Shown here piece after piece: positions 669 through 54,177 of a stretch of 64,000 nucleotides of DNA (the first letter of the stretch is position 1; each line of letters opens with the position of its first letter). A model generated the notes under the pieces. That model was given only the letters and a program-made list of their open reading frames with translations. It did no database searches and was not told the origin of the DNA. This stretch comes from a virus: IMG/VR virus record IMGVR_UViG_3300036832_001166, positions 1 through 64,000 of that record; one strand, 5' to 3'. Position numbers and translations under genes: made by a program.

Positions 669-1061
669 GTGCCCGGCTACTGGGAGCAGGTCGCAGTCCA
701 TGAGGCGCGCGGCGTTCCGCGGCCGGTCGCGATGCGCGCCGCCCGGATCATCCTGGAGCGCCGCGACCCGTCGCACATGGCGTGGGACGAGATCCTGCAT
801 CCCCGTAACCGCCGCGGCGAGTTCAGCGTCAGCGACGTCGCGCGCACGAAGCTCCCGGCGGGCCGGTTCCCGTCGATGACCGCGAAGCAGATCCACCGGA
901 TGCTGCGCAAGGCGGGGTTCCGGCATGTCGGCACCAAGGGCTCGCACGCGGTGTTCGAACCGCCCACCGGTGGACGTCGCGTGGTGGTGCCGATGCACAC
1001 CGGCTCGATCCCGCGCGGCACGCTGCGCAGCATCCTGACGACGGCCGGGGCGGCGATCTGA
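669..1061 (+). CDS. hicA: HicA-family mRNA interferase domain fused to an N-terminal extension carrying WDEILHPRNRRGEF
   Basis: C-terminal 61 aa (from Met at 876) read AKQIHRMLRKAGFRHVGTKGSHAVF...VVVPMHTGSIPRGTLRSIL, the HicA GSH/VPxH/GTLxSIL pattern. TACGAT -10 box lies 6 nt before the GTG. Confidence 0.75.
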   Translation: MPGYWEQVAVHEARGVPRPVAMRAARIILERRDPSHMAWDEILHPRNRRGEFSVSDVARTKLPAGRFPSMTAKQIHRMLRKAGFRHVGTKGSHAVFEPPTGGRRVVVPMHTGSIPRGTLRSILTTAGAAI

Positions 1062-22212: not shown

Positions 22213-24999
22213 ATGGACCTCGTCACCATCGCGCGCGAGAACGCGACGCTTCGCGAGGAGTTCCTGCGCCGCGGACTGGTCACGGAGGACCGCCTGAACC
22301 AGCTCGGCTGGGTGTCGCACTCAGACCTTGACCTGTGGCAGGACGCGGGCGTGCTGGAGCTGGGCGTCCGCGGGCTGCAGGAGGCGTGGGGCCATAGCGT
22401 CCCCGGCGGCATCCGCGTCGGCGGCGGCGGCCGCCACGGCGCGTGGGGTCTCGGCGCCCTCAGCGGCGACGTCTTCAACCGACGGATCCTCCGCGGCCGC
22501 GGCGGCAGGTTCGCCGGGAGCATCGGCGGCAAGCAGGTCGCGCCCGGCGAGAAGCACAACCGGCGCATCGCGGCCATCCCGAGCCTGCCGCGCGTCTCAC
22601 GCATCGAGCATCCCGGCGCGAAGGAGGGCGCGCCGATCGCGACGGTCAAGACCCGCCGCGGGATCGGGCCGTCCAAGAAGCTGAAGGTGTACGCCACCCC
22701 AGCGAGCCGCGCTCGGCCGGGGCTGCCCGAGCGGATGAGCGGCGAGCAGGCGCAAGCCGAGTTCGCCAGCCAGGCCGCGCCCGCCATCGGGCATCCCGAG
22801 GAGCTGCACGCGCTCGGGAAGGAGCGTCTCAAGCGCATGGCTGACGCGGAGCACAAGGCCGGTGTCAGCGCCTGGCGCGCCGGGGACGTCGCCGCCGCCA
22901 ACAAGCACCACCGGACCGCGGGCGAGCACATGGCCTCGATCCACAATCCCGACGAGACGCTCAAGGCGGGCACCGCGGAGGTGTACGAGCGGCGCAGCAA
23001 GCGGCTGGAGAAGCGGATCTCGCGCCGGGTCGCGAAGGCCGGGAAGCAGAAGCGCACCCCAGCGGCCCGCCAGCCGCGCGGCGAGCACGACCTGAGCGCC
23101 GCCGAGGTTCACTTCAACGACGCCGGACGCGTCTCGCAGAAGACGCTGCTGGCCTACGTCGAGCAGGCCGCGACCAAGCCGACGACCGCGTCGATGTACC
23201 GCGACGCGAACGGCAACTACCACCCGTCCCGTCAGGCGTTGCACGCGGCGATCATCGACAAGCTGTTCCGCCAGCAGACCGACCAGGGCCTGAGCGGGAC
23301 GGCGCCCGAGCTGAAGCCGCCCGCCGACGGCAAGCCGACCGTGCATTTCACCGGCGGCGGCTACGCCAGCGGCAAGGGCGGCGTCATCAAGCAGCTCAAG
23401 GCGAAGGGCGAATGGCCCGAGGACGCGATGCTGCTCGACCCGGACCTGATCAAGGCGGAGCTGCCCGAGTTCCAGCACGCCGCGATGGACGACCCGGAGG
23501 CGAACCTGCGCGTCTACACCGAGGCGTGGGACATCGCGCAGCAGGCGATGAAGCTGGCGCAGGAGAAGAAGCTGAACGTGGTGGTCGACGGGATCACGAA
23601 CACGAGCCCCGACGAGGTCGCCAAGCGGCTGAAGAGCTTCACCGACGCGGGCTACGTCAACCCGCGGATCAGCTACGTCAGCGTGCCGACCGAGGAGGCG
23701 ATCTCCCGGGCGAGAGCGCGGGCGGAGAAGGCTAAGACCCCGGCGGACCGGCGGATGATCCCGGAGACGATCATGCGGTCCGTCCACCGTGACGTGTCGG
23801 CGACGCTGCCGGGCGTCCTGCAGCGCGCGAAGGAGATGGGCGCGCAGGTGCAGGTGTACGACACCAACCAGGGGCTCGACGAGACGACCGGGCGGCCGAA
23901 CGCGCCGAAGCTGGTGGCCGAGGCGATGCCGAACGGCCACATCCACTACCCGGACCCGGAGGGCTACCAGGCGATCCTGAACAAGGCGCAGGAGACGATC
24001 TCCGGCGTCCCGGACGTGCGGGCACCCGAGCAGGGCGCGTGGCGTACCGGCGGGCAGATCGTGAAGATCGACCCGGGCGTCGAGCGCAAGGTCGGCCAGG
24101 ATCTGATGCGCAGCATGCCGAACGCGGCCGAGCAGAAGCTGCCGCAGCCGACCAGCGATCCCGCTGACCTGCTCAAGATCGCGGAGGAGAAGGGCCTGCC
24201 CGCGTACCGGGCGCTGCTCGATCTCGGCGCGGGGATTGCACAGGCGCTCGGCGGTGACGTTCACGACATCTCGGCGGGCAAGGACTTCAAGCAGGTCGGC
24301 GAGGACATCGCCAGCAACATGAGCAAGCCGCACGTGATCATCGCGCCGGTCAAGAGCATGCGGCGAGCGTTGGAGAAGGCCGCGGCGGACGGCACCCCGA
24401 ACGACTTCTCTCACCTCCACGACGCGGTGCGCGCGACCGTGACCGTCCCGACGGCGCAGGATCTGCCGCACGCCATCGCGACGATCACCAAGGAGGCGGA
24501 GGCGCGCGGCTGGAAGGTGGAGCGCACCAAGGCGCGGCTGCTGAACGCGAAGGGCTCTAACCGGTCGGGCTCCAACGGCTACGGCGACACGACCCTGATC
24601 CTGCGCGCGCCGCCGGAGGCGGGCGGGATGACAGCCGAGCTGCAGATCAACACCAACCCGATGTGGTGGACCAAGGAGGTCGGGCCGGGCCACAAGTACT
24701 ACGAGCTGGAGCGCCAGATCACCGGCCGCGCGATGGCCGAGAAGCGCAAGCCGACGCCGCAGGAGTCCGACCTGGTCGGCAAGATCCAGGAGGCCGCCAA
24801 GCCGCTGTATGACCGCGCGCACGGCGCGTCGCTGAACGGCGGCATCACCGGCAACGCCGGGGACGCCGTGATGGGCAACGAGAGCGATCGCGCGCAGGCG
24901 CAGAGCACCCTCAAAGAGCTGGCTGACCAGACGGCCGGGATGATGGGCGGCCCGCCGACGCCGACGTCGCAGCGTGGCCGCAGGCCGAGGGCGGCGTGA
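22213..24999 (+). CDS. Multidomain protein: N-terminal LQEA/RGRGGRF region, Zeta-toxin-like P-loop kinase, RelA/SpoT-like nucleotidyltransferase
   Basis: FTGGGYASGKG, LDPDLIKAELPEF, NVVVDGIT, ISYVSVPTEEAISRA..RA, RRMIPE (Zeta/PezT-like); VKSMRRALEK, LHDAVRATV, NGYGDT, AELQINT..M, GHKYYE (RelA_SpoT-like). Confidence 0.8.
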   Translation: MDLVTIARENATLREEFLRRGLVTEDRLNQLGWVSHSDLDLWQDAGVLELGVRGLQEAWGHSVPGGIRVGGGGRHGAWGLGALSGDVFNRRILRGRGGRFAGSIGGKQVAPGEKHNRRIAAIPSLPRVSRIEHPGAKEGAPIATVKTRRGIGPSKKLKVYATPASRARPGLPERMSGEQAQAEFASQAAPAIGHPEELHALGKERLKRMADAEHKAGVSAWRAGDVAAANKHHRTAGEHMASIHNPDETLKAGTAEVYERRSKRLEKRISRRVAKAGKQKRTPAARQPRGEHDLSAAEVHFNDAGRVSQKTLLAYVEQAATKPTTASMYRDANGNYHPSRQALHAAIIDKLFRQQTDQGLSGTAPELKPPADGKPTVHFTGGGYASGKGGVIKQLKAKGEWPEDAMLLDPDLIKAELPEFQHAAMDDPEANLRVYTEAWDIAQQAMKLAQEKKLNVVVDGITNTSPDEVAKRLKSFTDAGYVNPRISYVSVPTEEAISRARARAEKAKTPADRRMIPETIMRSVHRDVSATLPGVLQRAKEMGAQVQVYDTNQGLDETTGRPNAPKLVAEAMPNGHIHYPDPEGYQAILNKAQETISGVPDVRAPEQGAWRTGGQIVKIDPGVERKVGQDLMRSMPNAAEQKLPQPTSDPADLLKIAEEKGLPAYRALLDLGAGIAQALGGDVHDISAGKDFKQVGEDIASNMSKPHVIIAPVKSMRRALEKAAADGTPNDFSHLHDAVRATVTVPTAQDLPHAIATITKEAEARGWKVERTKARLLNAKGSNRSGSNGYGDTTLILRAPPEAGGMTAELQINTNPMWWTKEVGPGHKYYELERQITGRAMAEKRKPTPQESDLVGKIQEAAKPLYDRAHGASLNGGITGNAGDAVMGNESDRAQAQSTLKELADQTAGMMGGPPTPTSQRGRRPRAA

Positions 25000-25742
25000 T
25001 GGCACGCGACCCGCTCGTGCCCGCGGATCCCGGCAGCACGCAGGACAGCAGCGTCGACCCGTCGCAGACGATCCCGAACCGCGGCCAGCCGCAGGGCAGC
25101 GACGACTCCGCCTACGACGGCGGCGAGTACGAGTACTGGCTGCGTGACGGCGTCACGCCGTACCGGACGCTCGGCCCGGCCGAGGCCGACGTGTTCTCGC
25201 AGCACGACAACGGCTGGATGATGCAGCACACCGTCGCCCGCGACAGCCTGTGGCCGTCAGGCCCGGGCGAGGTCGCGGGCATGATCGGCGGACGTCACCG
25301 CCTGACCGAGCCGACGAAGGGCGCGGCGCCGCTTGACCCGGGCCCCGGCGAGGACTTCGCGCCGGTCGAGTCGCCTGACTACATGGCCGAGGCCGACTCC
25401 GGCGGCGACCTGCCGCAGCCCGACGATGACGCGACGAACGTGGCGCAGCCGCCGCCGTCCGCGCAGGCCGACGGCCAAGACCTTCCCTCCGGCGGCATGA
25501 CTGAGGAGCAGATCCGCGACGCGGGCCTGCGCATCGACGTGCCGTTCGAGAGTCCGCTACCGGCGGACTTGAAGTACAAGGACACGGGACAGCAGGCGTG
25601 GACTCCGCCGCCGGGGTTCCGCCAAGGCCTGCCCCCGATCGACGACTGGCTCGCGGAGAGGCTTGGGGTGCCGCGAGACCTGGGAACGGAAGGGGCCGAG
25701 GGTGGCAGTGGCAGTGGAGATACCGGGGAGCCTGGCGACTGA
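24996..25742 (+). CDS. Acidic, Pro/Asp/Gly-rich hypothetical protein (immunity/partner candidate)
   Basis: Translationally coupled (GTGA) to the Zeta-RelA/SpoT gene. Confidence 0.65.
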   Translation: MMARDPLVPADPGSTQDSSVDPSQTIPNRGQPQGSDDSAYDGGEYEYWLRDGVTPYRTLGPAEADVFSQHDNGWMMQHTVARDSLWPSGPGEVAGMIGGRHRLTEPTKGAAPLDPGPGEDFAPVESPDYMAEADSGGDLPQPDDDATNVAQPPPSAQADGQDLPSGGMTEEQIRDAGLRIDVPFESPLPADLKYKDTGQQAWTPPPGFRQGLPPIDDWLAERLGVPRDLGTEGAEGGSGSGDTGEPGD

Positions 25743-31166: not shown

Positions 31167-32975
31167 GTGTCGGTCTCCGCACCCCCGCCTGCCGCTCCAG
31201 CCGCGCCTCCGCCCGGCGGCGGCACCGGTACGTGGAGCGCGCAGCTTCACCCGCGCGGCCGCGGCGGGAAGTGGATCGTCTCGCACGGCGCCGGGTACGG
31301 GCCCGCCGGGGCTGACCAGACCACCCAGCAGCTCCAGCAGCGCCTGAAGCAGCTCGGCTTCAATGTGCCCGCTGACGGCAAGTACGGGCCGCTGACCCAG
31401 CAGGCCGTCAAGGCGTTCCAGAACCGGTACGGGCTGACTCCCAGCGGCAGCGTCGACGCCGCGACGATGGAGGTCTTGCAGAACCCGCCCAGCCAGACGC
31501 TCAAGCAGGTGCAGACGGGCATGGCGGCCACCAAGAAGGCGGCGTCTACGGCCGCTCGCAAGACCGCCACCGCCAAGGCCAGGGCCAAGTCGAGCCAGCG
31601 TACGGCCAGGATCCGCGCGGGCTCAGGCAGCCCTACGCGGGCTCTGAACAGCACCGTGCAGGGGCCCGGCCATCTCGGCCAGGGCAACCTGCAGCAGGGC
31701 GCGGGCCTGACCGGCACCGCCAGCCCCGCGGTCTCCAACCTGCAGGCGACGCTCACCGCCGCCGGATACAAAGTCAACAAGGACGGGCGCTTCGGCCCGC
31801 AGACGGAGGCAGCCGTGAGACAGCTTCAGCAGGCGCACGGGCTCGCCGTTGACGGCGTCGTCGGACCCGAGACGAAGGGCCTGCTGATCGGGCTGGCGGC
31901 AAGCACCGCCAAGACGACGACGAGAGCCAAGCGCTCCGCCCGGATCACGAGCAAGTCGATCCCCGGGCAGCCCGCCGTCCTGCGCACCGCGGCGGGGACG
32001 CCACGTCACGGCAGCCGCAGCGCCGGGAGCCGCATGAAGCTGACGCCGCCGAAGAAGGGCCCGGGGATCCTGAAGTACTCGGCGGAGGTGCCGACTGAGC
32101 AGCCCGGGCTGGAGGAGACGACGGTCGCGTTCGGCTACGGCGGTCAGCCGTCGATGTCGATCAAGGATGCTCGCGATCAGGAGCCTGCCTACGACCAGCC
32201 GGTGTGGACCCGAACCAGCGTTCAGACTGACATCCCGGACCTGACCATCCAAGACGGCCGCGAGCCCTCCCCGCCGACACCGAAGCAGGGCGAGATCCTC
32301 GTCGACGGCCGCGAGCCGTCACCGCCGACGCTGCCCGGCCAGATGCTCGTCGACGGCCGCGAGCCCCCGCCGCCGCAGCCGACCGGCGACCTGACGATCC
32401 CGGACGGGCGCGTTCACGTCCAGACGATGACCCGGCTCGCCGAGGCCGTGCTGGCGCGCAGGGCCGCCAAGACCGGCGACGAGTTCGTGCGCGCCCGGGC
32501 TCGCGAGCGCGTGCTCCGCCAGCAGCTCGCCGAAGCCGGGCTGTACAAGGAGGCGCTTCACCCACGCGGCCGCGGCGGGAAGTGGATGCAGGCGCAGCGT
32601 GACCGGGTCGCGCCGTACTTCGATCTGACCAAGCCGCACGAGATGGTGCCCGTGGACGCGCTGCGGCCGACCAAGGAGGACCCGGAGTCGAGCTACCGCA
32701 ACGCCGCGAAGCGGATGGACGACGCGGCGCGAGGCGGGCTGGCGAAACGCAAGCCGGTGACCGCTCAGCGCGGCGCTGGCGGCAGGCTGCTGCTCGTCGA
32801 CGGTCACGCAACCGTGGAGGCACTCAAGCGCAAGGGCATCACGCACGTTCCGGCCGAGATCCGGCCGCGCGCCACGCCGCTGAACCCGAAGACCACGCAC
32901 GAGGCGATCCGCGAGCAGGAGCGGCTGGAGCGGGCCGCGATCGAACAAGAGAGCAAGCGAAGGAGAGCACGATGA
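31167..32975 (+). CDS. Modular protein: HPRGRGGKW motif, two peptidoglycan-binding domains, DGREP repeats, helical module, second HPRGRGGKW, ParB/Srx-like domain
   Basis: LQQRLKQLGFNVPADGKYGPLTQQAVKAFQ...GL..SG.VD and LQATLTAAGY...DGRFGPQTEAAVRQLQ..HGL.VDGVVGPET (PG_binding_1); VPVDALRP...KPV...LLLVDGH...ALKRKG..HVPAEI (ParB-like). Confidence 0.8.
   Translation: MSVSAPPPAAPAAPPPGGGTGTWSAQLHPRGRGGKWIVSHGAGYGPAGADQTTQQLQQRLKQLGFNVPADGKYGPLTQQAVKAFQNRYGLTPSGSVDAATMEVLQNPPSQTLKQVQTGMAATKKAASTAARKTATAKARAKSSQRTARIRAGSGSPTRALNSTVQGPGHLGQGNLQQGAGLTGTASPAVSNLQATLTAAGYKVNKDGRFGPQTEAAVRQLQQAHGLAVDGVVGPETKGLLIGLAASTAKTTTRAKRSARITSKSIPGQPAVLRTAAGTPRHGSRSAGSRMKLTPPKKGPGILKYSAEVPTEQPGLEETTVAFGYGGQPSMSIKDARDQEPAYDQPVWTRTSVQTDIPDLTIQDGREPSPPTPKQGEILVDGREPSPPTLPGQMLVDGREPPPPQPTGDLTIPDGRVHVQTMTRLAEAVLARRAAKTGDEFVRARARERVLRQQLAEAGLYKEALHPRGRGGKWMQAQRDRVAPYFDLTKPHEMVPVDALRPTKEDPESSYRNAAKRMDDAARGGLAKRKPVTAQRGAGGRLLLVDGHATVEALKRKGITHVPAEIRPRATPLNPKTTHEAIREQERLERAAIEQESKRRRAR
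32239..32418 (+). repeat. Tandem ~16-aa repeat (I/L/V)xDGREPxPP, three full copies plus one partial
   Basis: TIQDGREPSPPTP, ILVDGREPSPPTL, MLVDGREPPPPQP, TIPDGRVH. Confidence 0.75.
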
Positions 32976-42073: not shown

Positions 42074-42904
42074 ATGGCGCGCACCGGGCGCTCCGCACCG
42101 TCGCTAGGCCGGGTCCAGGTACTGCAGACGCGGCTGCCGCCGCCGCCGATCGCGACGCTCCAGGACGCGTTCGTCGGGTCCGTGCTCAACTCGTCGCTGT
42201 GGCAGGTCGAGAGCGGCACCGTGTCGGTCAGTGGCCAGTTGAACCTGACGGCGACCTCGGGGTACTCCGGCGTGGTGTCCAGGAATCGCTACCGGCTCAC
42301 CGGCTCGGCCTTTCTGCTGCAGCTCACCCCGATGGCAGTGGGTAACGGCACGAACCAGGTCGGCTTCGGCCTACGACCCCACCAACTCGACAACAACATC
42401 GGTTCGCTCGGAGCCGACGTTGGTGGATCCGGCCCGCCCCCGACGCTCGAAGCCACCTACCGCGACACCAGCGGCACCCAGCACTTGGTCGGGGCGGGGA
42501 TCCCGTGCCCCACCGGAGCCAGTCCGATCTGGCTGCGCGTCCGAGAATCCGCCGGGACGGTGTATTGGGACTGGTCGGCGGACAACCTGAACTGGACCAA
42601 CGTCTGGAGCCTGGCCGACCCGTTCTCGACCGACGCGCTCTACGTCGAGATCTTCGCCGGGCACTACGGCGCCGAGACCGATACGATCGCGGCGCTCGAC
42701 AACGTCAACGTTCTACCGGCGCTGACGACGCCAGTCGCTGCTGCGGCTACGGCGGCGGCGGCCTACGTGACCGGTGGCCCGGTGCAGCAGATGTTCCCGT
42801 CCGGCGACCTGACTGCCACCGGCTGGACGCCGTCGAGCGGCACGAGCCTGTCCGCGATGCTGAGCGACCAGGCCGACGCCACCTACGACTTCTCGCCGGT
42901 GTAA
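42074..42904 (+). CDS. Concanavalin-A/LamG-like putative fibre protein
   Basis: LQDAF...LNSSLW...WLRVRESAG.VYWDWSAD..NWT beta-sandwich pattern. Confidence 0.65.
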   Translation: MARTGRSAPSLGRVQVLQTRLPPPPIATLQDAFVGSVLNSSLWQVESGTVSVSGQLNLTATSGYSGVVSRNRYRLTGSAFLLQLTPMAVGNGTNQVGFGLRPHQLDNNIGSLGADVGGSGPPPTLEATYRDTSGTQHLVGAGIPCPTGASPIWLRVRESAGTVYWDWSADNLNWTNVWSLADPFSTDALYVEIFAGHYGAETDTIAALDNVNVLPALTTPVAAAATAAAAYVTGGPVQQMFPSGDLTATGWTPSSGTSLSAMLSDQADATYDFSPV

Positions 42905-45900
42905 TGGCTCGGCTGCTGACGTGCGGGTTTGAGGGCGGCAGCCTCGCCGCCGACGAGAACCTCAGCGGCTTCTTTGACTCCGGCCTGGGCGGCACCACCT
43001 ACGCCTACTCGACGACCACCGTGCGCTCGGGCGCGCGCTCGTTGCAGCTTGGTGGCGGTGGCTCGCAGAACCTGGGCCTCAGCGCTGGGTCGGTCCTCAC
43101 GAACACGTACTACCAGCGGCTCGCGATCTACCCCACGACGCGCGACGCGAGCGACTGGTATGTGATCCAGATCGCCGATGGCAGCACCGGGCTGCAGTTC
43201 ACGGTCAAGCCCACCGGCGCGATGGAGGTCGAGAACTACAGCTCGAACGCGGCGGTCCTCACCGGCGTGGGCACGCTGGCGCTCAACACATGGACGGTGA
43301 TCGAGTGCAGCTACGTGCCCGCCACGGGTGCGACGGTAGTACGCGTCAACGGGACGCAGGTGGTCTCGGGCACGATCGAGACCACCACCAACGCTGTCTG
43401 CTACATCGCCAATATGTTCGGCTCGGGCGTCGCGTTCGTCGACGACTGGGCCATCAACGACAGCACCGGCGCGAGCAACAACTCGTGGCCCGGTCTGGGG
43501 CGGACCGGCCCGATTGCCGAGGTGAGCCTCGCCGCTGGCGGAGCACCGTCCGCTCGCACCGCTCACTCTCTCGTGTTCCGGGGCCGGACCCAGACGCCCG
43601 CCACCGTGACCCTTCAGCTCGCGTTGATGGAGGGCGCCACGAACCGGTCGGGCACGCTGACGAGCGCTCCGCTGACCACCACGGTCGCCCAGTACGTCGT
43701 CCCGATCCCCGATGCGGTCGCCGCGTCGATCGCCAGCTACAGCGATCTGTCGGTGCGGATGTGGGGCTCCTCGGACGCCCCTGTCGTCATCGAAGTCGAG
43801 CAGCTCTTCCTCCAGGCGCCGCCCGTCGGCGGTCCGCAGGCGCTGACCGCATCGGCGACCGCCGCGACAGCCGCTTCGGCGGCAGTCATCGCGCCTTCGA
43901 CCGCCTACCGCAACGCGATCCTGGCCGAGCCGGGGCTCGTGTCCTACTGGCGGCTCGGTGAGACGTCAGGGAACGTGCTCGACTCCAAGGACTCCAACCC
44001 GGGCACCACCGTCACAAGCATCACGCGCAACGTCCCCGGCCTGATCGTCAACAGCGGCGACGGGGCAGCGAGCACCGACGGGACGACCGGCCCGTACGTC
44101 CGGGTGCCGTACAGCGCGAACATGGACACGGGCGCGGAGCTGTCGGTCGAGTTCTGGATCAAGCCGACGGCGCTTGATGCGTCAAGCCTCATCTATCCCA
44201 TCGGCCGAGATAACCCCAGCACCACGATCTGGTTCGTCCGTTACTACGCCTCCGGTGACGGTCGCTGGGAGGTAGACGTTGTCGACGCGAATAGCGTGAC
44301 CACCGTCCTCACGTCGAAAACGGGCACCGAGGCGGCGGCGGCGGGCAAGCTGCAGCACATCGTCGCGACGTACAGCGCCACGGCCGGGCAACTCAGGCTC
44401 TTTATCAACGGCGTCTCGACCACCTCGACCCAGAACCGGACGCCCAACGCGAACGTCTTGGCGGCGTCGTCTGTCATCGACCTGTTCAGCGGCTGGAGCC
44501 ACACCTCGACGCCTTCGATGAACGGCGTCCTCGACGAAGTGGCGGTCTACAACGCTGCGCTGACGCCCAGCCAGATCGCGAACCACTACGTGCTCGGGAC
44601 CGGGATTCCGTACCTCGCGGCCAGCGCCTCGGGTGCCAGCCAGGCGACGGCGCTTGTCGCGGTGCTGGCCCCGGTGCTCGCAACGGCGACCAGCACGACG
44701 ATCGCCGCGGCCGCGCTCACGGCGGCGGCGCGGATCACCGCCGCTGCCGTCACGCCGTCGGCTGCCCTAGCGGTCATCAGCGCCCCGACGAGCCTCGCGG
44801 CGTCCGCGGCCACCCCGACCGCGGCCACGGCGGCTGTTCTGGCGCAGGGCCAGTTGTCCGCGTCGGCCAGCACCGCGACGAGCGCTCAGGCAGCCGTCAC
44901 GGCCGCCACCGTCGCTCCTGCCGCGTTGACCGCTACGGCCGCTGCCAGCTCCAGCGCGGTCGCGTCCGTGGCTGCGCTCGCCGTGCTCACGGCGACCGCT
45001 CAGGGAGCATCAGCGGCTGTCACTGCCGCCCGCGCAGCCTCGCAGCTCGCGTCGGTCGCGGCCGCGAGTACGGCGGCGCAGGCGCTCACGACCGCTTCGG
45101 CGAAGCTGACCACCAGCGCGCAGGCGACCGGAAGCGTCACCGCCACGATGCTGGTTCCGGGCGTCGCGCTCCTGACCGCTACCGCGCAGGCGGCGACGAG
45201 CGCGAGCGGCTTCACCACGGCGGCGGCGCAGCTCGGCGGCGCGGCCATCACCTACGACGCCGCGATCGCGCCCGACGGCCCGATTCACGCCTACCCGACA
45301 AACGAGAGCGGGGGGAGCGTATCCAGCGATTCGGTGGCGGGCGATAACGCCAGTTGGACGGGCACGTTCACGCTGGCGCAGGCCGGGCCGCCGGGGATAG
45401 GCAACGCCGCCGTCGCGGTCACCGGAGCGACTGCCCAGACATCGGTCGGCGAACTGTCTATCGACACGCTCTCGGAGGAGGTCTGGTTCAAGGTCGCCAA
45501 CGCGTACGCGGCCGGTGGCGGTCTCATCCAGTTCGCAGATGTCACCGGGACCACGGCATACGACCGCCAGGTGTGGATGGGCAATGACGGGAAGATCTAC
45601 TTCGGCTTCTGGCAGAGCGCCGGGGCGATCACCATCGGCTCGCCCGGCGCATATAACGACGGGCTCTGGCATCACGCGGTGGCGACGCACCTGTCGGGCG
45701 GCAACTGCAACCTGTATGTGGACGGCGTCCTGGTCGCTGGCCCAGCCGCCGCGACGGCCGCTGGAGCGGGCTACACCGGCTACTGGAAGTTCGCCAACGC
45801 CTATCTGCTGACGTGGGCGCCGCTGCCCACGAACGCGAGCATCACGGGTGCGGTCGCCAAGATGGCGATCTACAACAGCGCGCTCTCGGCCGCGCGGGTG

Positions 45901-48900
45901 GTCGCCCACTACAACGCGGGCGTCACCGCGGGCGTTGGCGGCATAGCGGTCCAGGCGACGACGAGCGCTCAAGCGACCGTCACGGCCGCCGCCGTCACTC
46001 CTGCCGCGATCACCGCCACTGCTGGCGCTGCTGCTGCTGCCAGCGCCACCACGACCGCACCCGCTCGGCCCACGGCGACCGCCCAGGCCCCGACGGCCGC
46101 AACGTTGACGGTCCTCACCGCTCAGGTCGTGTCCGCGACCGCGCAGGCGAGTGCCCAGGCGACGACGACGCTGACGGCGGCGGCGCGGATTACGGCGAGC
46201 GCGCAGGCCATTGCGGCGGCCGCCGCAAATACGACCGTCGCCGCAATCTTGACCGTTCCCGCCCAGACGGCGACCCAGGCGACGGCCTCCTCTACCGCTC
46301 AGGCAGCGCTGGCGGCTGCGGCTGCGGCCGCGACCGCTGCGAGCATCACGCTGACCGTCCCCGGCGTCGCGTTCCTGACGTCGACGGCGGCTGCCGCTAC
46401 AGCCGCAACGATGGTCGTCAGCGCTGCCGCTGGGCTGACCCCCACGGCCAGTACCGCCGCGCAGGCGGTCGCTCTCGTGACCGCGAGGGCCACTGTGGTC
46501 AACAACGCGGAGGGTGGCGGCGTTGGCGTGACCGTCACCATCGGCAACTCGGGGGGCGCATCCGGCAACGCACCCGACGTCGTCGACATCGGCACCGGCG
46601 CGGCGCTCACCTTCGACAACACGCATGTCGCTCACGGTCGCCTGGCGTACAAGTTCTCCACCGGGGCGACCGCCGCGCTCTCGCGACTCCAGTGGAACGT
46701 CTCTATGGGCCTTCAGGCGAAGGCGTGGTTCCGGACCTACGTCTGGGTGGATGCATGGCCAGCGGCAACGATTCGGCTGATCAACATGGATCAGGGCACC
46801 ACTGCCTGCTGTGTGGTGGTGCTCCTGAGCAGCGGCAAGATGCAGGTCAGGACCGGCAGCGCTGGCACCCAGACGATCACCACCACCAACACGGTGCCGA
46901 CCGGCGCCTGGTTCCGGATCGAGGGCTTCTGCATCGGAGATCCGGCCCTCGGTCAGGTCGAGCTGAAGCTGTTCACAGACCCGGACAGCCCGACGCCTCT
47001 GGAGACGCAGACCTCGGCCGCGAACGTCAACACGTTCGGGCTGATGGATCACTTCAACGTCGGGGTCTCGACCACCACGGCGAACGTTGCCGCGTACTGG
47101 GAAGACGACGTCGGCTTCTCCAACGTCGCCTATCTCGGCCCGCCGATGCAGGCCAGCGCGGGCGCGGCGACGGCCGCGGTGGCCGCGGTTAGCACCGGAG
47201 CGCCACTAGCCGCCAGCGCCGCGAACCAGGCTGCCGCCGTCACGACGGTCACGACAACGAGTCCGCTGACCGCGAGTGCGGCGGCTGTGAGCCAGGCGAT
47301 CGCGCTGCTCGCCAGCGGCGGCGCGCAGCTCGCGCCCGCGGCCAGCGCCACGACGGTCGCCGTCGCCGCGGTCACGGCGGCCGCGACATTACCGGCCGTC
47401 GCCTCGGCGGCCTCGGCGGCGATCGCCGCCGTCATCGCAGCGCCCAGCCTGGCCGTGAGCGCCCAGACCGTGACGGCCGCCAGCGGCTTCACAACGGCGC
47501 CGGTGTCGTTGAGCACTGCGGCTGCGCTGGCTGTCACGTCGCTGACATCGAGCAACGCCGCCGCCACGACCGTCGCCACGACTGCGAGCGTCTCGCCTAC
47601 CGCCAATAGCCTGCTCGTGCTCTGGATCGCGCACGCTGTTTCCGGCGGCACTACGGCCACTCCGTCGGGACTGGGATTGACCTGGACGCTCGCACAGCGG
47701 CTCGTTGTCGCGTCCTCGACGAAGATCGAGTGCTGGACGGCAGTGTGCGGTGCGTCCCCAGGATCGGGCGCAATCACAATCACGCTTGGTGCTGCCGCGA
47801 CCGTCTGCTGGGACGTTGATCAGGTCACGGGCGAAAACGTCTCCGCGCCGCTGGTGACCGCCAACACGAAGACCGCGAGCGGGACGGGCACCGCTGCGGC
47901 GCTGACCTACAACGCGCCGACGGCGACGGACGGGCTGCTGTACGGCTGCGGCGCCTCGGGCTTCGTCAGCCAGACGCCCAATACGGCGGCGGGCTGGACG
48001 GAGCTGGCCGACCGGTCACAGGCGACCCCGTCCATCTCACTGGAAACGCAGCTTTCCTTGCCTCCTGCAAGTACGGCCGGGGCCTCGACACTGAGCGCCA
48101 GCGTCAACTGGGGCGTAATCGGGATCGAGCTTGCGGCTGCGGTGGGGATCGGTCCTAGCGCCACGACCGCGACCAGCGCTACCGCGACCGTCACGACCGC
48201 GCTCGTGCCGCTGCTCGCTCCTGCCGCCGCCGCGGTCACGAGCGTTACGGCGAGCGTCACGGCCGCGGCTCCGATGCAGGCCAGCGCGAGCGCGGCCACC
48301 CAGGCGCAGACAGCCGCGACGGCTGCGACCCAGCTCATCGCAACGGCCCAGACGAGGACGCAGGCCACGGCCGGTCTCATCACCGGCGAGGCGCTCGTCG
48401 CGACCGCGCAGGCAGTTACGAGCTGCACCACTGGCATGCAGGTCCCGGGCGTCGCGTTCCTGACCGTGACGGCCGCGGGGGTGACCGCCGCCAGCGCTAC
48501 CGCAACCGCCGCAGCGCGGCTTGCTGCAGCAACGAGCAGCGCCACACAGGCTCTGGCCACGCTCAGCACGCCCGCCTTCCTGAGCCCGGCTGCGACCACA
48601 ACGAGCGCTGCCACGAGCGCTGTGAGCGCCGCTCCGGCCCTCGCTCCGGCCGCCCAAGCCCTAACCCAGGCCGCGGTGTCGGCCACGACCCCGATCCGGC
48701 TGAGCGTCTCGGCGAGCGCCGCGACCTTGGCCGTGGCGCTTCTCGGGGCCGGGACGGGCCTGGCGCCATCCGCGTCGACCGCGACACAGGCGATCGCCCT
48801 GGTCGCCTGTCCGAGTTCGCTGACGCTGAGCGCAACGGTGCGGTTCGCGGCCACCGCTAGCACGTCGGCAGCGTCGACGCTGCAGGCCGCCGCGACGAGC

Positions 48901-49236
48901 ACCACCACCACCGCCTGCACGCTCGGCTACCGGCCCTGGCTGAGCCCGGCGGCCGCTGCTGCCTCTAGCGCTGGGCTGATCGTGAGCGTGCGTGTCTCGC
49001 TTCGGGCGAACGCGACCAGCCAGACGCTGGCGCAGCTCGTCGTCACCGCGCCGCTGCTCGCGGCTCTGAAGCTGCCGTTCTACGCGGACGTCTTCTCGAA
49101 TCGCACGTTCGCCGATGTCGCGGATGTGAGGGCGTACGTCGACGTGGTCCAGCCGCGCGCCTACGCCGACGTTGCCGACCTGTTCACCTACGCCGACGTC
49201 GAGCGCGCCAGAACCCTGGTCGACGTCGAAAGCTAA
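42904..49236 (+). CDS. Giant (~2110 aa) Ala/Thr-rich protein with several LamG/ConA-like domains; putative fibre/adhesin
   Basis: LVSYWRLGE...SVEFWIK...HIVATY...RLFING...LDEVAVYN.AL and YPTNE...EVWFK...WHHAVAT...LYVDG...MAIYN.AL LamG patterns separated by A/T/S-rich spacers; TAATG coupling gives start 42904. Confidence 0.8.
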   Translation: MARLLTCGFEGGSLAADENLSGFFDSGLGGTTYAYSTTTVRSGARSLQLGGGGSQNLGLSAGSVLTNTYYQRLAIYPTTRDASDWYVIQIADGSTGLQFTVKPTGAMEVENYSSNAAVLTGVGTLALNTWTVIECSYVPATGATVVRVNGTQVVSGTIETTTNAVCYIANMFGSGVAFVDDWAINDSTGASNNSWPGLGRTGPIAEVSLAAGGAPSARTAHSLVFRGRTQTPATVTLQLALMEGATNRSGTLTSAPLTTTVAQYVVPIPDAVAASIASYSDLSVRMWGSSDAPVVIEVEQLFLQAPPVGGPQALTASATAATAASAAVIAPSTAYRNAILAEPGLVSYWRLGETSGNVLDSKDSNPGTTVTSITRNVPGLIVNSGDGAASTDGTTGPYVRVPYSANMDTGAELSVEFWIKPTALDASSLIYPIGRDNPSTTIWFVRYYASGDGRWEVDVVDANSVTTVLTSKTGTEAAAAGKLQHIVATYSATAGQLRLFINGVSTTSTQNRTPNANVLAASSVIDLFSGWSHTSTPSMNGVLDEVAVYNAALTPSQIANHYVLGTGIPYLAASASGASQATALVAVLAPVLATATSTTIAAAALTAAARITAAAVTPSAALAVISAPTSLAASAATPTAATAAVLAQGQLSASASTATSAQAAVTAATVAPAALTATAAASSSAVASVAALAVLTATAQGASAAVTAARAASQLASVAAASTAAQALTTASAKLTTSAQATGSVTATMLVPGVALLTATAQAATSASGFTTAAAQLGGAAITYDAAIAPDGPIHAYPTNESGGSVSSDSVAGDNASWTGTFTLAQAGPPGIGNAAVAVTGATAQTSVGELSIDTLSEEVWFKVANAYAAGGGLIQFADVTGTTAYDRQVWMGNDGKIYFGFWQSAGAITIGSPGAYNDGLWHHAVATHLSGGNCNLYVDGVLVAGPAAATAAGAGYTGYWKFANAYLLTWAPLPTNASITGAVAKMAIYNSALSAARVVAHYNAGVTAGVGGIAVQATTSAQATVTAAAVTPAAITATAGAAAAASATTTAPARPTATAQAPTAATLTVLTAQVVSATAQASAQATTTLTAAARITASAQAIAAAAANTTVAAILTVPAQTATQATASSTAQAALAAAAAAATAASITLTVPGVAFLTSTAAAATAATMVVSAAAGLTPTASTAAQAVALVTARATVVNNAEGGGVGVTVTIGNSGGASGNAPDVVDIGTGAALTFDNTHVAHGRLAYKFSTGATAALSRLQWNVSMGLQAKAWFRTYVWVDAWPAATIRLINMDQGTTACCVVVLLSSGKMQVRTGSAGTQTITTTNTVPTGAWFRIEGFCIGDPALGQVELKLFTDPDSPTPLETQTSAANVNTFGLMDHFNVGVSTTTANVAAYWEDDVGFSNVAYLGPPMQASAGAATAAVAAVSTGAPLAASAANQAAAVTTVTTTSPLTASAAAVSQAIALLASGGAQLAPAASATTVAVAAVTAAATLPAVASAASAAIAAVIAAPSLAVSAQTVTAASGFTTAPVSLSTAAALAVTSLTSSNAAATTVATTASVSPTANSLLVLWIAHAVSGGTTATPSGLGLTWTLAQRLVVASSTKIECWTAVCGASPGSGAITITLGAAATVCWDVDQVTGENVSAPLVTANTKTASGTGTAAALTYNAPTATDGLLYGCGASGFVSQTPNTAAGWTELADRSQATPSISLETQLSLPPASTAGASTLSASVNWGVIGIELAAAVGIGPSATTATSATATVTTALVPLLAPAAAAVTSVTASVTAAAPMQASASAATQAQTAATAATQLIATAQTRTQATAGLITGEALVATAQAVTSCTTGMQVPGVAFLTVTAAGVTAASATATAAARLAAATSSATQALATLSTPAFLSPAATTTSAATSAVSAAPALAPAAQALTQAAVSATTPIRLSVSASAATLAVALLGAGTGLAPSASTATQAIALVACPSSLTLSATVRFAATASTSAASTLQAAATSTTTTACTLGYRPWLSPAAAAASSAGLIVSVRVSLRANATSQTLAQLVVTAPLLAALKLPFYADVFSNRTFADVADVRAYVDVVQPRAYADVADLFTYADVERARTLVDVES

Positions 49237-50622: not shown

Positions 50623-50990
50623 GCGGAGTACGAGCCAGCATCTACCGCAAGGACTGGCAGGACTTCGCCAACGGCGGGCTCTCCAGCTACGTCCGCGAGG
50701 TCACGATCACCGACACCGGCCCGCACCTCGGCGGCTTCCCGCCCGAGGTGGCCGAGTATGAGCCGACCGAGACGGCCCCGGCCGTGCGGCTCGTGGCCCG
50801 CTGGCTCAACGGGCACCGCTACGTTCACGCCGAGCCGGTCGACAAGCCCGAAGGCATGGTCGGGCCGATGTTCGGCGGCACCTACATCGCGATGCACGAC
50901 CTCAGCGCCGAGCAGTGCATCGACTTTCAGGGAGCGATCCCGCTGCACGACCGCTACGAGACGGTCGAGCAGTACGCGAGCTACGACTAG
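50619..50990 (+). CDS. Phage hypothetical protein (MFGG.YI...IPLHDR.E)
   Basis: Recognisable MFGG/PLHDR pattern; GTGA overlap. Confidence 0.65.
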   Translation: MSGVRASIYRKDWQDFANGGLSSYVREVTITDTGPHLGGFPPEVAEYEPTETAPAVRLVARWLNGHRYVHAEPVDKPEGMVGPMFGGTYIAMHDLSAEQCIDFQGAIPLHDRYETVEQYASYD

Positions 50991-51031
50991 GTGAAGATGG
51001 CCGCCCCCGAGCGGCCACGCCCGGCAGAATC

Positions 51032-51068
51032 CATCTGGGGGAGCGCCCAAAGGCGGCCGTAGTATCGG
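51032..51068 (+). promoter_or_regulatory. Putative late promoter CATCTG-N22-TAGTATCGG
   Basis: Same motif and spacing at 56964-57000. Confidence 0.5.
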
Positions 51069-51076
51069 GGCTCAGC

Positions 51077-52582
51077 ATGAGTGCCACGGTCACAGCGGAC
51101 CCTTCCACTGACACGCTTGAGCTGCGGGAGGCGATGTACGCGCTCCCGCGCAGCGCCGTCGAGTTCCCGATCGAGCTGCAAGAGGCGCGTGTTCAGCGGC
51201 TCGTCGACGACGGTCTCAGCCTGGAAGAAGCAGCCGCGCGCGAGGAGCAGGAGCGCTCCAAACTGCTGCCGCTGCACATCCTGCGGCCGTGCCTCGGCAA
51301 GGGCAAGGGCCGCCACCTCTACGAGGCCAAGATGCTGGAGGAGAACGCCACCAAGTTCGCGGGCTGGCGCCAGTACATCGACCATCTCTCCCCGGAGGCT
51401 CGCCGCGCCGCCAAGGGTCTGCCCCGCTCGATCCGCGACCTGGGCGGACGGATCGTCGAGAGCTACTGGGACGGCAGCGTGCCGCCCAACCCCGACAAGG
51501 GGTTCGACCAGGGCGCCGTGGTCGGCTGGTCGCTCCCGACACCGTTCATCCGTGAGCTGGCCGAGAACGACCCCGAGCTGGTCGAGGCGTCGATCTCCGC
51601 GAACGCCACCAGCGTGCAGCCGATCATGCGCGACGGCAAGCGAGCGTGGCTGGTCGAAGGCATCGAGGACCGCGGAAGCGTTGACTGGGTGACGGAGGCG
51701 GGCGCGGGCGGCCGCGTCGTCGCGTTGATGGAAGCTGCCTACGAGGAGGACGGGATGGGACTGCTTGAGTCCATGACCGACGAGGAGTTCATCGCCTACG
51801 TCGAAGAGGTGCGCCCCCACCTGCTCACCGAGCAGTCCGACGGCGACGCCGAGGATGCGAAGGATGGTGGCGACGACGAGCTGGAGGAAATGATCGCGCG
51901 GATGATGAAGCGCAATCCCAAGCTCACCCGCGGCCAGGCCGAGGCGATGGCCAAGAAGGCTCTCGCTCAGTCGAGTTCGTCAGTGGCGGAAGCCGAGATC
52001 ACAAAGGAGACAGACATGGGTGCGATCACCCCAGAGGCGCTCCAGGAGGCTCTCCAGAGTGAGGACTCTCGCGGCGCCCTTGAGACGATCATCGGGCCGC
52101 TCGTCGAGGAGCGCGTCAAGACGCTGGTCGAGACGGCGGTGGCGGGCGAGCGAGAGCTGATCCGCGCGGAGGCGCGCGCCGACGCTGACCGGCAGCTTGA
52201 GCTGCGCGACATGCGCGACGACGCGCACCGGCAGATCAGCGAGGCCAAGCTTCCCGGAGCGTTCACGGACCGTGCCAAGGCGCTGTTCGAGATCACCGAC
52301 GACGGCCCGACGTCGACGTTGGACGTTGTCGATGACGTCGACGACGACGGCCACGTCACCAAGAAGGCGGCCGACAAGCTCCAGGAGGCGGTGGATGCCG
52401 CCGTCCAGGATCAGCGCGAGCTGCTCGCCGCGGCGAACCCGACGACCGTCCGCGGTCAGGGTCCGGGCGCTCCCGCTAAGCGCGGCGAGGACGGGGAGGA
52501 GGCGAAGAAGGGCGAGGGAACGCTCTACGGCGCCTTGCTTCAGGAAGCAGGAGTCGATCCCTCCAAGGCGTGGGACGACTGA
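51077..52582 (+). CDS. Prohead protease with C-terminal scaffolding domain
   Basis: ILRPCLG...YIDH (His), ASISA (Ser), SVDWVT.AGAGG (Asp) pattern, then an acidic helical region; sits upstream of the decoration and capsid genes. Confidence 0.8.
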   Translation: MSATVTADPSTDTLELREAMYALPRSAVEFPIELQEARVQRLVDDGLSLEEAAAREEQERSKLLPLHILRPCLGKGKGRHLYEAKMLEENATKFAGWRQYIDHLSPEARRAAKGLPRSIRDLGGRIVESYWDGSVPPNPDKGFDQGAVVGWSLPTPFIRELAENDPELVEASISANATSVQPIMRDGKRAWLVEGIEDRGSVDWVTEAGAGGRVVALMEAAYEEDGMGLLESMTDEEFIAYVEEVRPHLLTEQSDGDAEDAKDGGDDELEEMIARMMKRNPKLTRGQAEAMAKKALAQSSSSVAEAEITKETDMGAITPEALQEALQSEDSRGALETIIGPLVEERVKTLVETAVAGERELIRAEARADADRQLELRDMRDDAHRQISEAKLPGAFTDRAKALFEITDDGPTSTLDVVDDVDDDGHVTKKAADKLQEAVDAAVQDQRELLAAANPTTVRGQGPGAPAKRGEDGEEAKKGEGTLYGALLQEAGVDPSKAWDD

Positions 52583-53121: not shown

Positions 53122-54177
53122 ATGAACGGCAATCCATACGGGATCTTCGGGCGGCCGATCCGGCTGCTTGAGGCTTACCGCGAGTGGAGGGACGAGCGGA
53201 TGCTGGAGGAGGCCGACTCCAAGGCCGACTTCCCGTCGTTCCTGTTCGGCCCGGTCCGCCAGTCGATGTGGACCGGCTACAGCCGCGCGCAGGCACAGTA
53301 CCAGCGCTACACCCGGCAGGAGTCCGCGCCGGACTTCCGTGACCGGCGGCTGCGTGGCCTCAACGGCCTGCTCGGGATCGGCTACGTGGGCGACCACGGG
53401 CACTATCCCGGGCTGGCTCGCACGGAGCGCCCGGCGGCCCGGCTGGCGGTCGACACCTACGGTGGCGTCTACCAGATCACCCGCCAGGCGATCATCAACG
53501 ACGACAGCAACGAGCTGCTGAACCGCAACCCGGCCGACATGGGCTACGCGGCCGGGGTGTTCATCCTGCAGACCGTGATCGCGATGATCCAGAACCCCGG
53601 CAACGCGCCGGACGGCAACCCGTTCTACAGCGTCGGCCGCGGCAACCAGGTGGTCACGCCGCTGTCCGAGGACGCGATCGCGGACGCGATCGGGTTCATG
53701 GAGTCCCAGGTGGACGACGACGGCCGTCAGATCGTTGTCACGCCGAGCCTCCTGGTGGTCCGCAGCGCGCGGATGCAGATGATCGCCCAGCGGATCCTCA
53801 ACTCGACCCAGACCGGCGTCAACATCCAGTACGCGGGCGCCCCCGGGATTGGGTCCAACGTGTTCGACAAGGGCACGATCAACCCGCTGGCCGGGATCCT
53901 GCCCGCCGACGGCGTGATCCGCGACCCGTGGTTCTCGGACTCCAACGACTGGTATCTGTTCGCGGATCCGGGCGACGTTCCGGGGTTCGCGGTCGGCTTC
54001 CTCAACGGGCAGTCCGAGCCGCAGGTGATGCTCAAGGATCCGATGGTCCGGATGGCGCTCGGCGCCGGAACGGACCCGTACCAGTACGAACTCGATTCCG
54101 TCGACTTCAAGGTCCGTTCGGACTTCGGTGTCGCGCCCGTCGATCCGCGCGGCGCGTTCCGCGCCATCGTCCCCTGA
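53122..54177 (+). CDS. Major capsid protein, Mu gpT-like (HK97 fold)
   Basis: ADFPSFL, SAPDFR, TYGG...ITRQAIINDD, WYLFADP, FLNGQ.EP, FKVR.DFGV..VD.RG. Confidence 0.9.
   Translation: MNGNPYGIFGRPIRLLEAYREWRDERMLEEADSKADFPSFLFGPVRQSMWTGYSRAQAQYQRYTRQESAPDFRDRRLRGLNGLLGIGYVGDHGHYPGLARTERPAARLAVDTYGGVYQITRQAIINDDSNELLNRNPADMGYAAGVFILQTVIAMIQNPGNAPDGNPFYSVGRGNQVVTPLSEDAIADAIGFMESQVDDDGRQIVVTPSLLVVRSARMQMIAQRILNSTQTGVNIQYAGAPGIGSNVFDKGTINPLAGILPADGVIRDPWFSDSNDWYLFADPGDVPGFAVGFLNGQSEPQVMLKDPMVRMALGAGTDPYQYELDSVDFKVRSDFGVAPVDPRGAFRAIVP

Follow-up and report, generated by a model that had tools for sequence, protein, structure and literature searches.

What does a phage gain from a single protein that joins a toxin-like kinase to a toxin-like nucleotide synthetase, and where would such a protein act? 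This question is raised by a gene at 22213..24999 (plus strand, as are all of its features given below; stop codon included) of IMG/VR virus record IMGVR_UViG_3300036832_001166, of which we analysed the first 64 kb (positions 1 to 64,000, hereafter the window). The gene encodes a protein of 928 amino acids (aa; P0001), which a preliminary description made from the nucleotide sequence had read as a zeta-like kinase fused to a RelA/SpoT-like nucleotidyltransferase. Our results, drawn from sequence and from analogy with known systems, suggest that the protein is a two-enzyme polyvalent phage effector, consisting of a zeta-type kinase and a Tas1/Apk-type synthetase and probably delivered by the virion, and we consider this reading probable as a whole.

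The source record is 125,432 bp long with direct terminal repeats (DTR), is rated 100% complete and has a GC content of 66-72%. The 928-aa open reading frame (ORF) has GC contents of 0.69, 0.49 and 0.95 at the first, second and third codon positions, which is typical for genes of this 68-71% GC genome, and thus it represents a real gene, as had been assumed. A word-indexed search recovered ~20 full-length orthologues of 870-955 aa with 41-72% identity, all on metagenomic phage contigs, mostly of 105-125 kb. Residue conservation was read from a 21-sequence orthologue alignment, to which "invariant" refers below, and seven related viral loci (L002-L008), most of them incomplete records, were also compared. 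The gene had no blastn match among 50,697 phage records. In a tblastn search of phage records with the whole protein the only match was the zeta region of a cyanophage PSS2 protein, and the synthetase domain alone found no match in a separate search. Sequence searches of the Protein Data Bank (PDB) with the single sequence and with the 21-orthologue profile returned chance matches only, plus a weak match to Zeta, and the NCBIfam library contained no match for the protein or for the gene downstream.

The C-terminal enzyme spans aa ~649-881 (24157..24855). Pfam RelA_SpoT (PF04607) aligns with aa 713-828 below its threshold (E 0.021, 15.5 bits against 27). An AlphaFold2 model of aa 640-928, built with the orthologue alignment as input, has a predicted local distance difference test score (pLDDT) of 89 and a predicted template modelling score (pTM) of 0.85. 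When this model was compared with the PDB by Foldseek, only small alarmone synthetases, CapRel and Tas1 were found among the matches listed (the best 26 of 35, E <= 0.001), with E values of ~2e-5 to 3e-4 and a probability of 1.0 for SaEAS, CapRel, RelP, RelQ and Tas1, so the predicted fold agrees with what had been read from the motifs. Structural comparison with VIA gave Z scores of 13.3-13.7 against RelQ, RelP, SaEAS and Tas1 (166-178 residues, root mean square deviation 2.5-3.4), the match to Tas1 covering 166 residues with a deviation of 2.5 and 26% identity, and lower scores against CapRel (12.4), long Rel enzymes (8-10) and Pol-beta nucleotidyltransferases (~8).

Sequence profiles lead to the same family. 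A HMMER search with the synthetase domain yielded 403 representative clusters at E <= 1e-3, whose proteins span 200-4,400 aa and usually carry the domain at the C-terminus; 34 of 89 relatives of the domain reach Pfam RelA_SpoT at E < 1e-3, the best at 1e-7. The profile of these 89 relatives matches Tas1 (6ox6_A) at E 1.2e-20, SaEAS at 2e-4 and (p)ppGpp synthetases at 0.03-0.08, and leaves CapRel and FaRel2 unmatched. In a second alignment, a 30-sequence profile centred on the zeta domain, Tas1 was again the sole match (E 4e-11). Because fold and profile evidence agree, the resemblance to RelA/SpoT reflects homology rather than chance, and by model and sequence we assign aa ~649-881 to the small-alarmone-synthetase fold and, within it, to the Tas1/Apk clade.

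The RelA_SpoT motif series that had been noticed by eye lies at 24352-24702, and its key residues are invariant. The syn1-like motif K714-S-M-R-R718-A-L-E-K722 (24352..24378) aligns with KSRERAMQK of Tas1; syn2, D737-A-V-R740-A-T742 (24421..24438), reads DAVRAT against DLARNT in Tas1 and contains the R-x-T signature of Apk-type enzymes; syn3, G789-Y-G-D792 (24577..24588), reads GYGD against GYSG in Tas1 and GYxS in ppGpp synthetases, its aspartate being specific to this family; syn4, E809-L-Q811-I-N-T814 (24637..24654), reads ELQINT against EIQVNS; and the syn5-like motif, G826-H827-K-Y-Y830 (24688..24702), is identical to that of Tas1, both reading GHKYYE when the next residue is included. 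The invariant residues are K714, R718, K722, D737, R740, T742, G789-Y-G-D792, E809, Q811, T814 and G826-H827, of which K714, R718, K722, D737, R740, G789, Y790, E809, Q811 and H827 are also nearly invariant in the 89 relatives.

Which product would this synthetase make? In a published analysis, three motifs set Apk enzymes apart from guanosine pyrophosphokinases, namely R-Y-T (syn2), G-x-N (syn3) and Y-H (syn4), and swapping these motifs leaves specificity unconverted (PMC12226406). By this comparison, syn2 of the phage protein (R-A-T) fits, syn4 (I-N) is nearer to V-N of Tas1 than to Y-H of Apk2, and syn3 reads G-D-T-T rather than G-x-N. The preliminary description had offered (p)ppGpp, (p)ppApp or pyrophosphorylated tRNA ends as products. 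An alarmone synthetase is upheld, and since the domain is specifically Tas1/Apk-like, (p)ppApp is favoured over (p)ppGpp or tRNA pyrophosphorylation and is the most likely product predicted from the sequence. It is alternatively conceivable, and in our judgement unlikely, that the domain pyrophosphorylates another acceptor, either the tRNA 3'-CCA end, as CapRel, FaRel2 and PhRel2 do, or guanine nucleotides, as (p)ppGpp-specific exported synthetases do. The fold match to CapRel (Z 12.4) is nearly equal to that of the other synthetases, syn3 GYGD is unlike both Tas1 and ppGpp synthetases, and Tas1 homologues with (p)ppGpp-specific or promiscuous activity exist (PMC12691689), which together with the failed motif swaps leaves room for a different acceptor. 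However, Tas1 is matched by the profile at least 16 orders of magnitude more strongly than the next solved synthetase, sequence comparison yields no match to CapRel or FaRel2, and both syn2 and syn4 follow Tas1.

A second gene of the same phage bears on this choice. At 109,935-113,018 of the genome (L009:5936-9019), an ORF encodes a 1027-aa protein with a CCA-adding tRNA nucleotidyltransferase and its HD domain, a short sequence tag described below (two copies), a further, Aph1-like HD domain and DUF7178. The fusion of a CCA-adding enzyme with an HD hydrolase of the SpoT type resembles a tRNA-end repair kit and would suit a synthetase that acts on tRNA. However, the PDB entry that best matches the Aph1-like domain (L009:7643-8095), over nearly its whole length, is 7smg, the (p)ppApp-specific hydrolase Aph1 (E 1.8e-10), and the domain keeps the residues aligned to D24 and R119, which the Aph1 authors identified as giving (p)ppApp specificity; it also matches phrog_990 (E 1e-27). 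Aph1 is the immunity enzyme in Apk2 systems, and the presence of an Aph1-like domain in this genome therefore supports (p)ppApp chemistry in this phage, although the link is a loose one. Two complete relatives encode both this domain and the synthetase. The 1027-aa protein may serve counter-defence or the repair of tRNA ends and alarmones.

The second enzyme of the 928-aa protein, a zeta-toxin-like P-loop kinase domain, occupies aa ~290-600 (23080..24012), with a Pfam core at aa 370-550 (23320-23862). Over this core, Pfam Zeta_toxin (PF06414) matches with E 9.9e-23 (81.1 bits against a cut-off of 22.3), which bears out the kinase assignment together with the invariant motifs downstream of the P-loop; AAA_33 also matches the region (E 2e-8), and the sole PHROG match of the whole protein, phrog_16619 "minor head protein" (E 5e-16), falls on the same region. 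The Walker A motif GGGYASGKG (23353..23379) begins with G381 at 23353 and has a glycine, G389, where serine or threonine is usual, exactly as first described. Its lysine, K388, is invariant, and G389 is kept in 20 of the 21 orthologues. D409-P-D411 (23437..23445), also invariant, takes the position of the catalytic aspartate. The match of the orthologue profile to Zeta (1gvn_B) is weak (E 0.088), yet in it K388 aligns with the Walker A lysine and D409-P-D411 with D65-N-D67. The residues invariant across the kinase are G381-K388, D409, D411, D459-G460, R503, R514, R522 and R526. The kinase region alone had no match in the PDB by sequence, and the 30-sequence zeta-centred profile, which matched only Tas1 there, does not separate an NAD-type kinase like AvrRxo1 from a UDP-N-acetylglucosamine-type kinase like Zeta/PezT.

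The glycine at position 389, in place of the Mg-coordinating serine or threonine, and the weak similarity to the solved Zeta structure could mean that this domain is degenerate or purely nucleotide-binding, which would leave the protein with one active enzyme, as a toxin on a large carrier. We consider this improbable. P-loops of the adenylate-kinase type also read GKG, and because GKG is usual there, Gly389 is no argument for inactivity. K388, D411, D459 and the four arginines are not only invariant among the orthologues but also nearly so across 30 more distant relatives, and some relatives contain two zeta domains. One relative (P0021, 1311 aa, on a 113-kb contig) has an intein with Hom_end/LAGLIDADG domains inside the kinase P-loop, with its junction placed by BLAST between the residues equivalent to A385 and S386; since inteins typically occupy functionally constrained sites, the P-loop is likely to be such a site. 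Judged by its sequence, aa ~290-600 is thus a zeta-toxin-family P-loop kinase with intact predicted catalytic residues.

How, then, might these two enzymes be deployed? The first 61 residues (22213..22395) form a helical leader with the module ARENATLREEFLRRGL...SHxDLD, for which AlphaFold2 predicts helices at aa 3-61 (pLDDT 77-91). The leader module (the first ~60 aa) recurs near the N-terminus of many other recovered proteins, where the cargo behind it is ParB-like domains, two zeta domains, or only one of the two enzymes (zeta or synthetase). In most cases a tag, E-x-LHPRGRGGK[W/F], comes after the leader. In the 928-aa protein this position reads RRILRGRGGRF, a degenerate tag of which RGRGGRF (aa 94-100; 22492..22512) lies in a disordered linker, and the orthologues P0010, P0014-16 and P0020 have LHPRGRGGKW at the same site.

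In a wider form, E-x-LHPR[GDN]RxG[KRE][WF], the tag occurs in eight further copies in four other proteins of this phage (one with HicA and three large multi-enzyme proteins), each copy ~10-70 residues upstream of a recognised domain. Three copies lie in the window (798-827, 31248-31277 and 32559-32588) and five farther along the genome (at ~107682, 108510, 109173, 110106 and 111627). The first tagged protein, encoded at 669-1061, has one tag (LHPRNRRGEF) in an N-terminal extension to a HicA domain (Pfam E 4e-16), and this HicA may be another tagged cargo rather than one half of a toxin-antitoxin pair. The second (31167-32975, 602 aa) has a ParB-like domain at its C-terminus, besides two tags and a pair of PG_binding_1 repeats. 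The remaining two are a GNAT-containing protein of 1046 aa with three tags (genome ~106.8-109.9 kb) and the 1027-aa protein with the CCA-adding and Aph1-like domains. A pattern scan of 2.9 million IMG/VR viral contigs for the strict tag found 33 stretches on about 22 contigs, often several per protein. Among ten tag proteins inspected, one (L016) has the tag between Phage_portal_3 and a PBECR3 nuclease, and elsewhere it stands upstream of zeta, NUDIX, cytidylate-kinase or PG-binding modules. No mention of the leader or of the LHPRGRGGKW tag was found in the searchable literature.

Relatives of the synthetase domain provide a further link to the virion. Two of them (P0052 and P0062) are fused to Portal_Mu, with a segment between portal and synthetase that resembles the ParB-like domain of the tagged 602-aa protein; a third (P0073) is an ADP-ribosyltransferase-MuF-topoisomerase IB protein, and others are fused to NUDIX, InPase, PG-binding, ParB_N and GNAT domains. 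Such architectures recall the polyvalent proteins, which carry several unrelated enzyme domains per polypeptide and, by prediction, enter the host together with the DNA (Iyer et al. 2017, PMC5512222). That study lists zeta-like kinases and RelA/SpoT domains separately as polyvalent modules, each also in fusion with MuF. Because relatives in the leader-plus-tag family are fused to portal or MuF proteins, virion delivery is, by analogy, the more likely mode for the 928-aa protein as well.

Several observations weigh against this proposal of a virion-delivered two-enzyme effector, in addition to Gly389, the departure of syn3 from Tas1 and the (p)ppGpp-specific Tas1 homologues already considered. 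Neither MuF (PF04233) nor Phage_portal_3 has a match in the protein or anywhere in the genome; a search of the genome for Portal_Mu was also without a match and is uninformative, since its control likewise gave none. The gene sits among small co-oriented genes of no assigned function, with the scaffold and capsid genes ~25-30 kb downstream. The protein's own tag is degenerate and lacks His-Pro. Near the gene, no immunity gene of the Tis1/IapK or epsilon/PezA type was recognised, and searches of Pfam, PHROG and NCBIfam matched none of its neighbours to an antitoxin. The Aph1-like domain does not strictly track the synthetase, being present in a 91%-complete relative that has no synthetase (G006) and not found in two 85-86% complete relatives that have one (G003 and G004). 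Finally, blastn and tblastn of phage records found no cultured phage relative that could serve for proteomics.

Some of these points would suit a protein that has the same two enzymes but is not packaged. It would then be an early or middle product acting inside the infected cell, in takeover, nucleotide-pool remodelling or counter-defence, with the leader and tag serving partner binding or processing. We regard this as possible but less likely. It would fit three observations: the gene lies among small genes of the same orientation and far away from the head module, no MuF or portal domain was found in protein or genome, and the tag is present on the HicA RNase and the CCA-adding/HD enzyme, both of which are possibly cytoplasmic. 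However, fusions of this synthetase subfamily, and of the tag, with portal and MuF proteins recur in other phages, the architecture resembles that of injected polyvalent proteins (PMC5512222), and an ATP-draining enzyme that is free during replication would harm the phage unless held in check.

What is observed is that both domains can be identified, that their catalytic residues are conserved, that leader and tag are shared with other proteins, and that relatives are fused to portal and MuF proteins. From this we propose a model for the virion-delivered effector in which we infer the substrates, toxicity, packaging and timing, as well as any cooperation of the enzymes. The protein would be loaded into the capsid, possibly processed near the tag, and enter the cell with the DNA. 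Early in infection, the injected protein would shut down host metabolism or defence: the kinase domain would phosphorylate UDP-N-acetylglucosamine, NAD or another substrate, and the synthetase would use ATP to pyrophosphorylate adenine nucleotides at the 3'-OH, making (p)ppApp and thereby draining ATP. The Aph1-like (p)ppApp hydrolase of the phage could later reverse the nucleotide effect. An effector role, as first suggested, fits the evidence, whereas superinfection exclusion in particular, which had been named as one form of it, is without support.

It is tempting to speculate further, although we hold this broader idea to be rather unlikely, that the leader and the E-x-LHPRGRGGKW tag are part of an as yet undescribed system by which high-GC soil phages load capsids or process cargo. 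There they would mark interchangeable enzyme modules for packaging, cleavage or both, namely zeta kinase, Apk-like synthetase, ParB-like nuclease, NUDIX, cytidine monophosphate (CMP) kinase, HicA and the CCA-adding/Aph1-like hydrolase. Kinase and synthetase would here be coupled on the 3'-OH of nucleotides or nucleotide-sugars, and the resulting shut-off, which would drain ATP and precursors, would be reversed by the phage's own Aph1-like hydrolase.

Comparison with known systems shows what is shared and what is not. Apk2, which is MuF-fused and found in temperate phages, and Tas1/Apk1, a Pseudomonas type VI secretion system effector, likewise place a Tas1-clade synthetase at the C-terminus of a delivery protein; Tas1 has R-x-T at syn2 and Q-x-N at syn4 in common with the 928-aa protein, and in this phage, too, an Aph1-like hydrolase is encoded. 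Unlike them, the 928-aa protein has no MuF or PAAR domain, has a zeta-type kinase in the same chain and reads GYGD rather than GYxGxN at syn3. It also has no adjacent Tis1/IapK immunity gene, the hydrolase of its phage being ~87 kb away and fused to the CCA-adding enzyme, and its phage, at ~125 kb with DTR, differs from the typically small temperate phages that carry Apk2. Zeta/PezT toxins, which are UDP-N-acetylglucosamine 3'-kinases, align with it in the P-loop lysine and the DxD catalytic aspartate; unlike them, it stands outside a two-gene toxin-antitoxin module, its Walker A motif ends in GKG and its kinase is embedded in a 928-aa multidomain protein.

Polyvalent proteins (PMC5512222) similarly hold disparate enzyme domains in one phage polypeptide, and relatives of the 928-aa protein carry ADP-ribosyltransferase, MuF, InPase, NUDIX, topoisomerase IB and PBECR3 domains; unlike in the known polyvalent proteins, the zeta plus RelA/SpoT combination, the leader and the tag are without a literature mention that we could find. 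The PSS2 "minor head protein" (ACT65592, phrog_16619) of ~1500 aa has a zeta-like region 30% identical to that of the 928-aa protein; unlike the latter, it matches in the kinase region only, with no RelA/SpoT-like part and no shared leader detected. Each of the two enzyme types was thus already known from phages, but separately, (p)ppApp synthetases as Apk2 and zeta-like kinases as parts of head proteins. What sets this family apart is the combination of both enzymes without a MuF domain and with a family-specific leader and tag; no paper on a zeta plus RelA/SpoT combination was found in the searchable literature, in line with the initial impression that such a fusion had not been characterised.

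The rest of the protein contains no further recognised enzyme. In an AlphaFold2 model of aa 1-345 (pLDDT 68, pTM 0.35), the leader helices (aa 3-61) are followed by disorder at aa 61-116, and a small beta unit (aa 128-159, pLDDT ~70) and three long helices (aa 195-275, pLDDT ~96) occupy 22585..23037. No enzyme fold was recognised in the N-terminal third from this model or from Pfam, PHROG or NCBIfam matches, and an ESM Atlas search with the N-terminus gave no usable feature match, all structure rows having template modelling scores below 0.3. The idea that the small genes upstream are a split N-terminal extension of the leader was rejected, as no similarity was found. The C-terminal tail (24856..24996) consists of helices and a disordered basic end, ...RGRRPRAA, which is kept in most orthologues. 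A downstream gene overlaps the stop codon (24996..25742, plus strand) and encodes an acidic, proline-rich and largely disordered protein of 248 aa with a conserved module of ~45 aa, GMTEEQIRDAGLRIDVPFE..LKY..WTPPPGF. This module follows, or is fused to, every leader-zeta gene examined, the fusion being seen in one locus (L008/P0043). A promoter and terminator scan around the gene gave no signal above shuffled sequences.

Elsewhere in the window lie genes for a scaffold-like protein (50915-52582), a major capsid protein (53122-54177), a tail sheath protein (57364-58878) and a tape measure protein (from 60539), and because the window carries this set, the phage is contractile-tailed. Upstream of the head genes, a 2243-aa ORF (42505-49236) encodes Laminin_G_3 domains (E 2e-31) and has no PHROG match.

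Within the Tas1 clade, the GYxD signature at syn3 marks an uncharacterised branch. The family described here gives defined constructs for asking whether phages inject nucleotide-poisoning enzymes, and it also bears on how cargo is addressed to the capsid and on whether the phage switches off such poisoning again.

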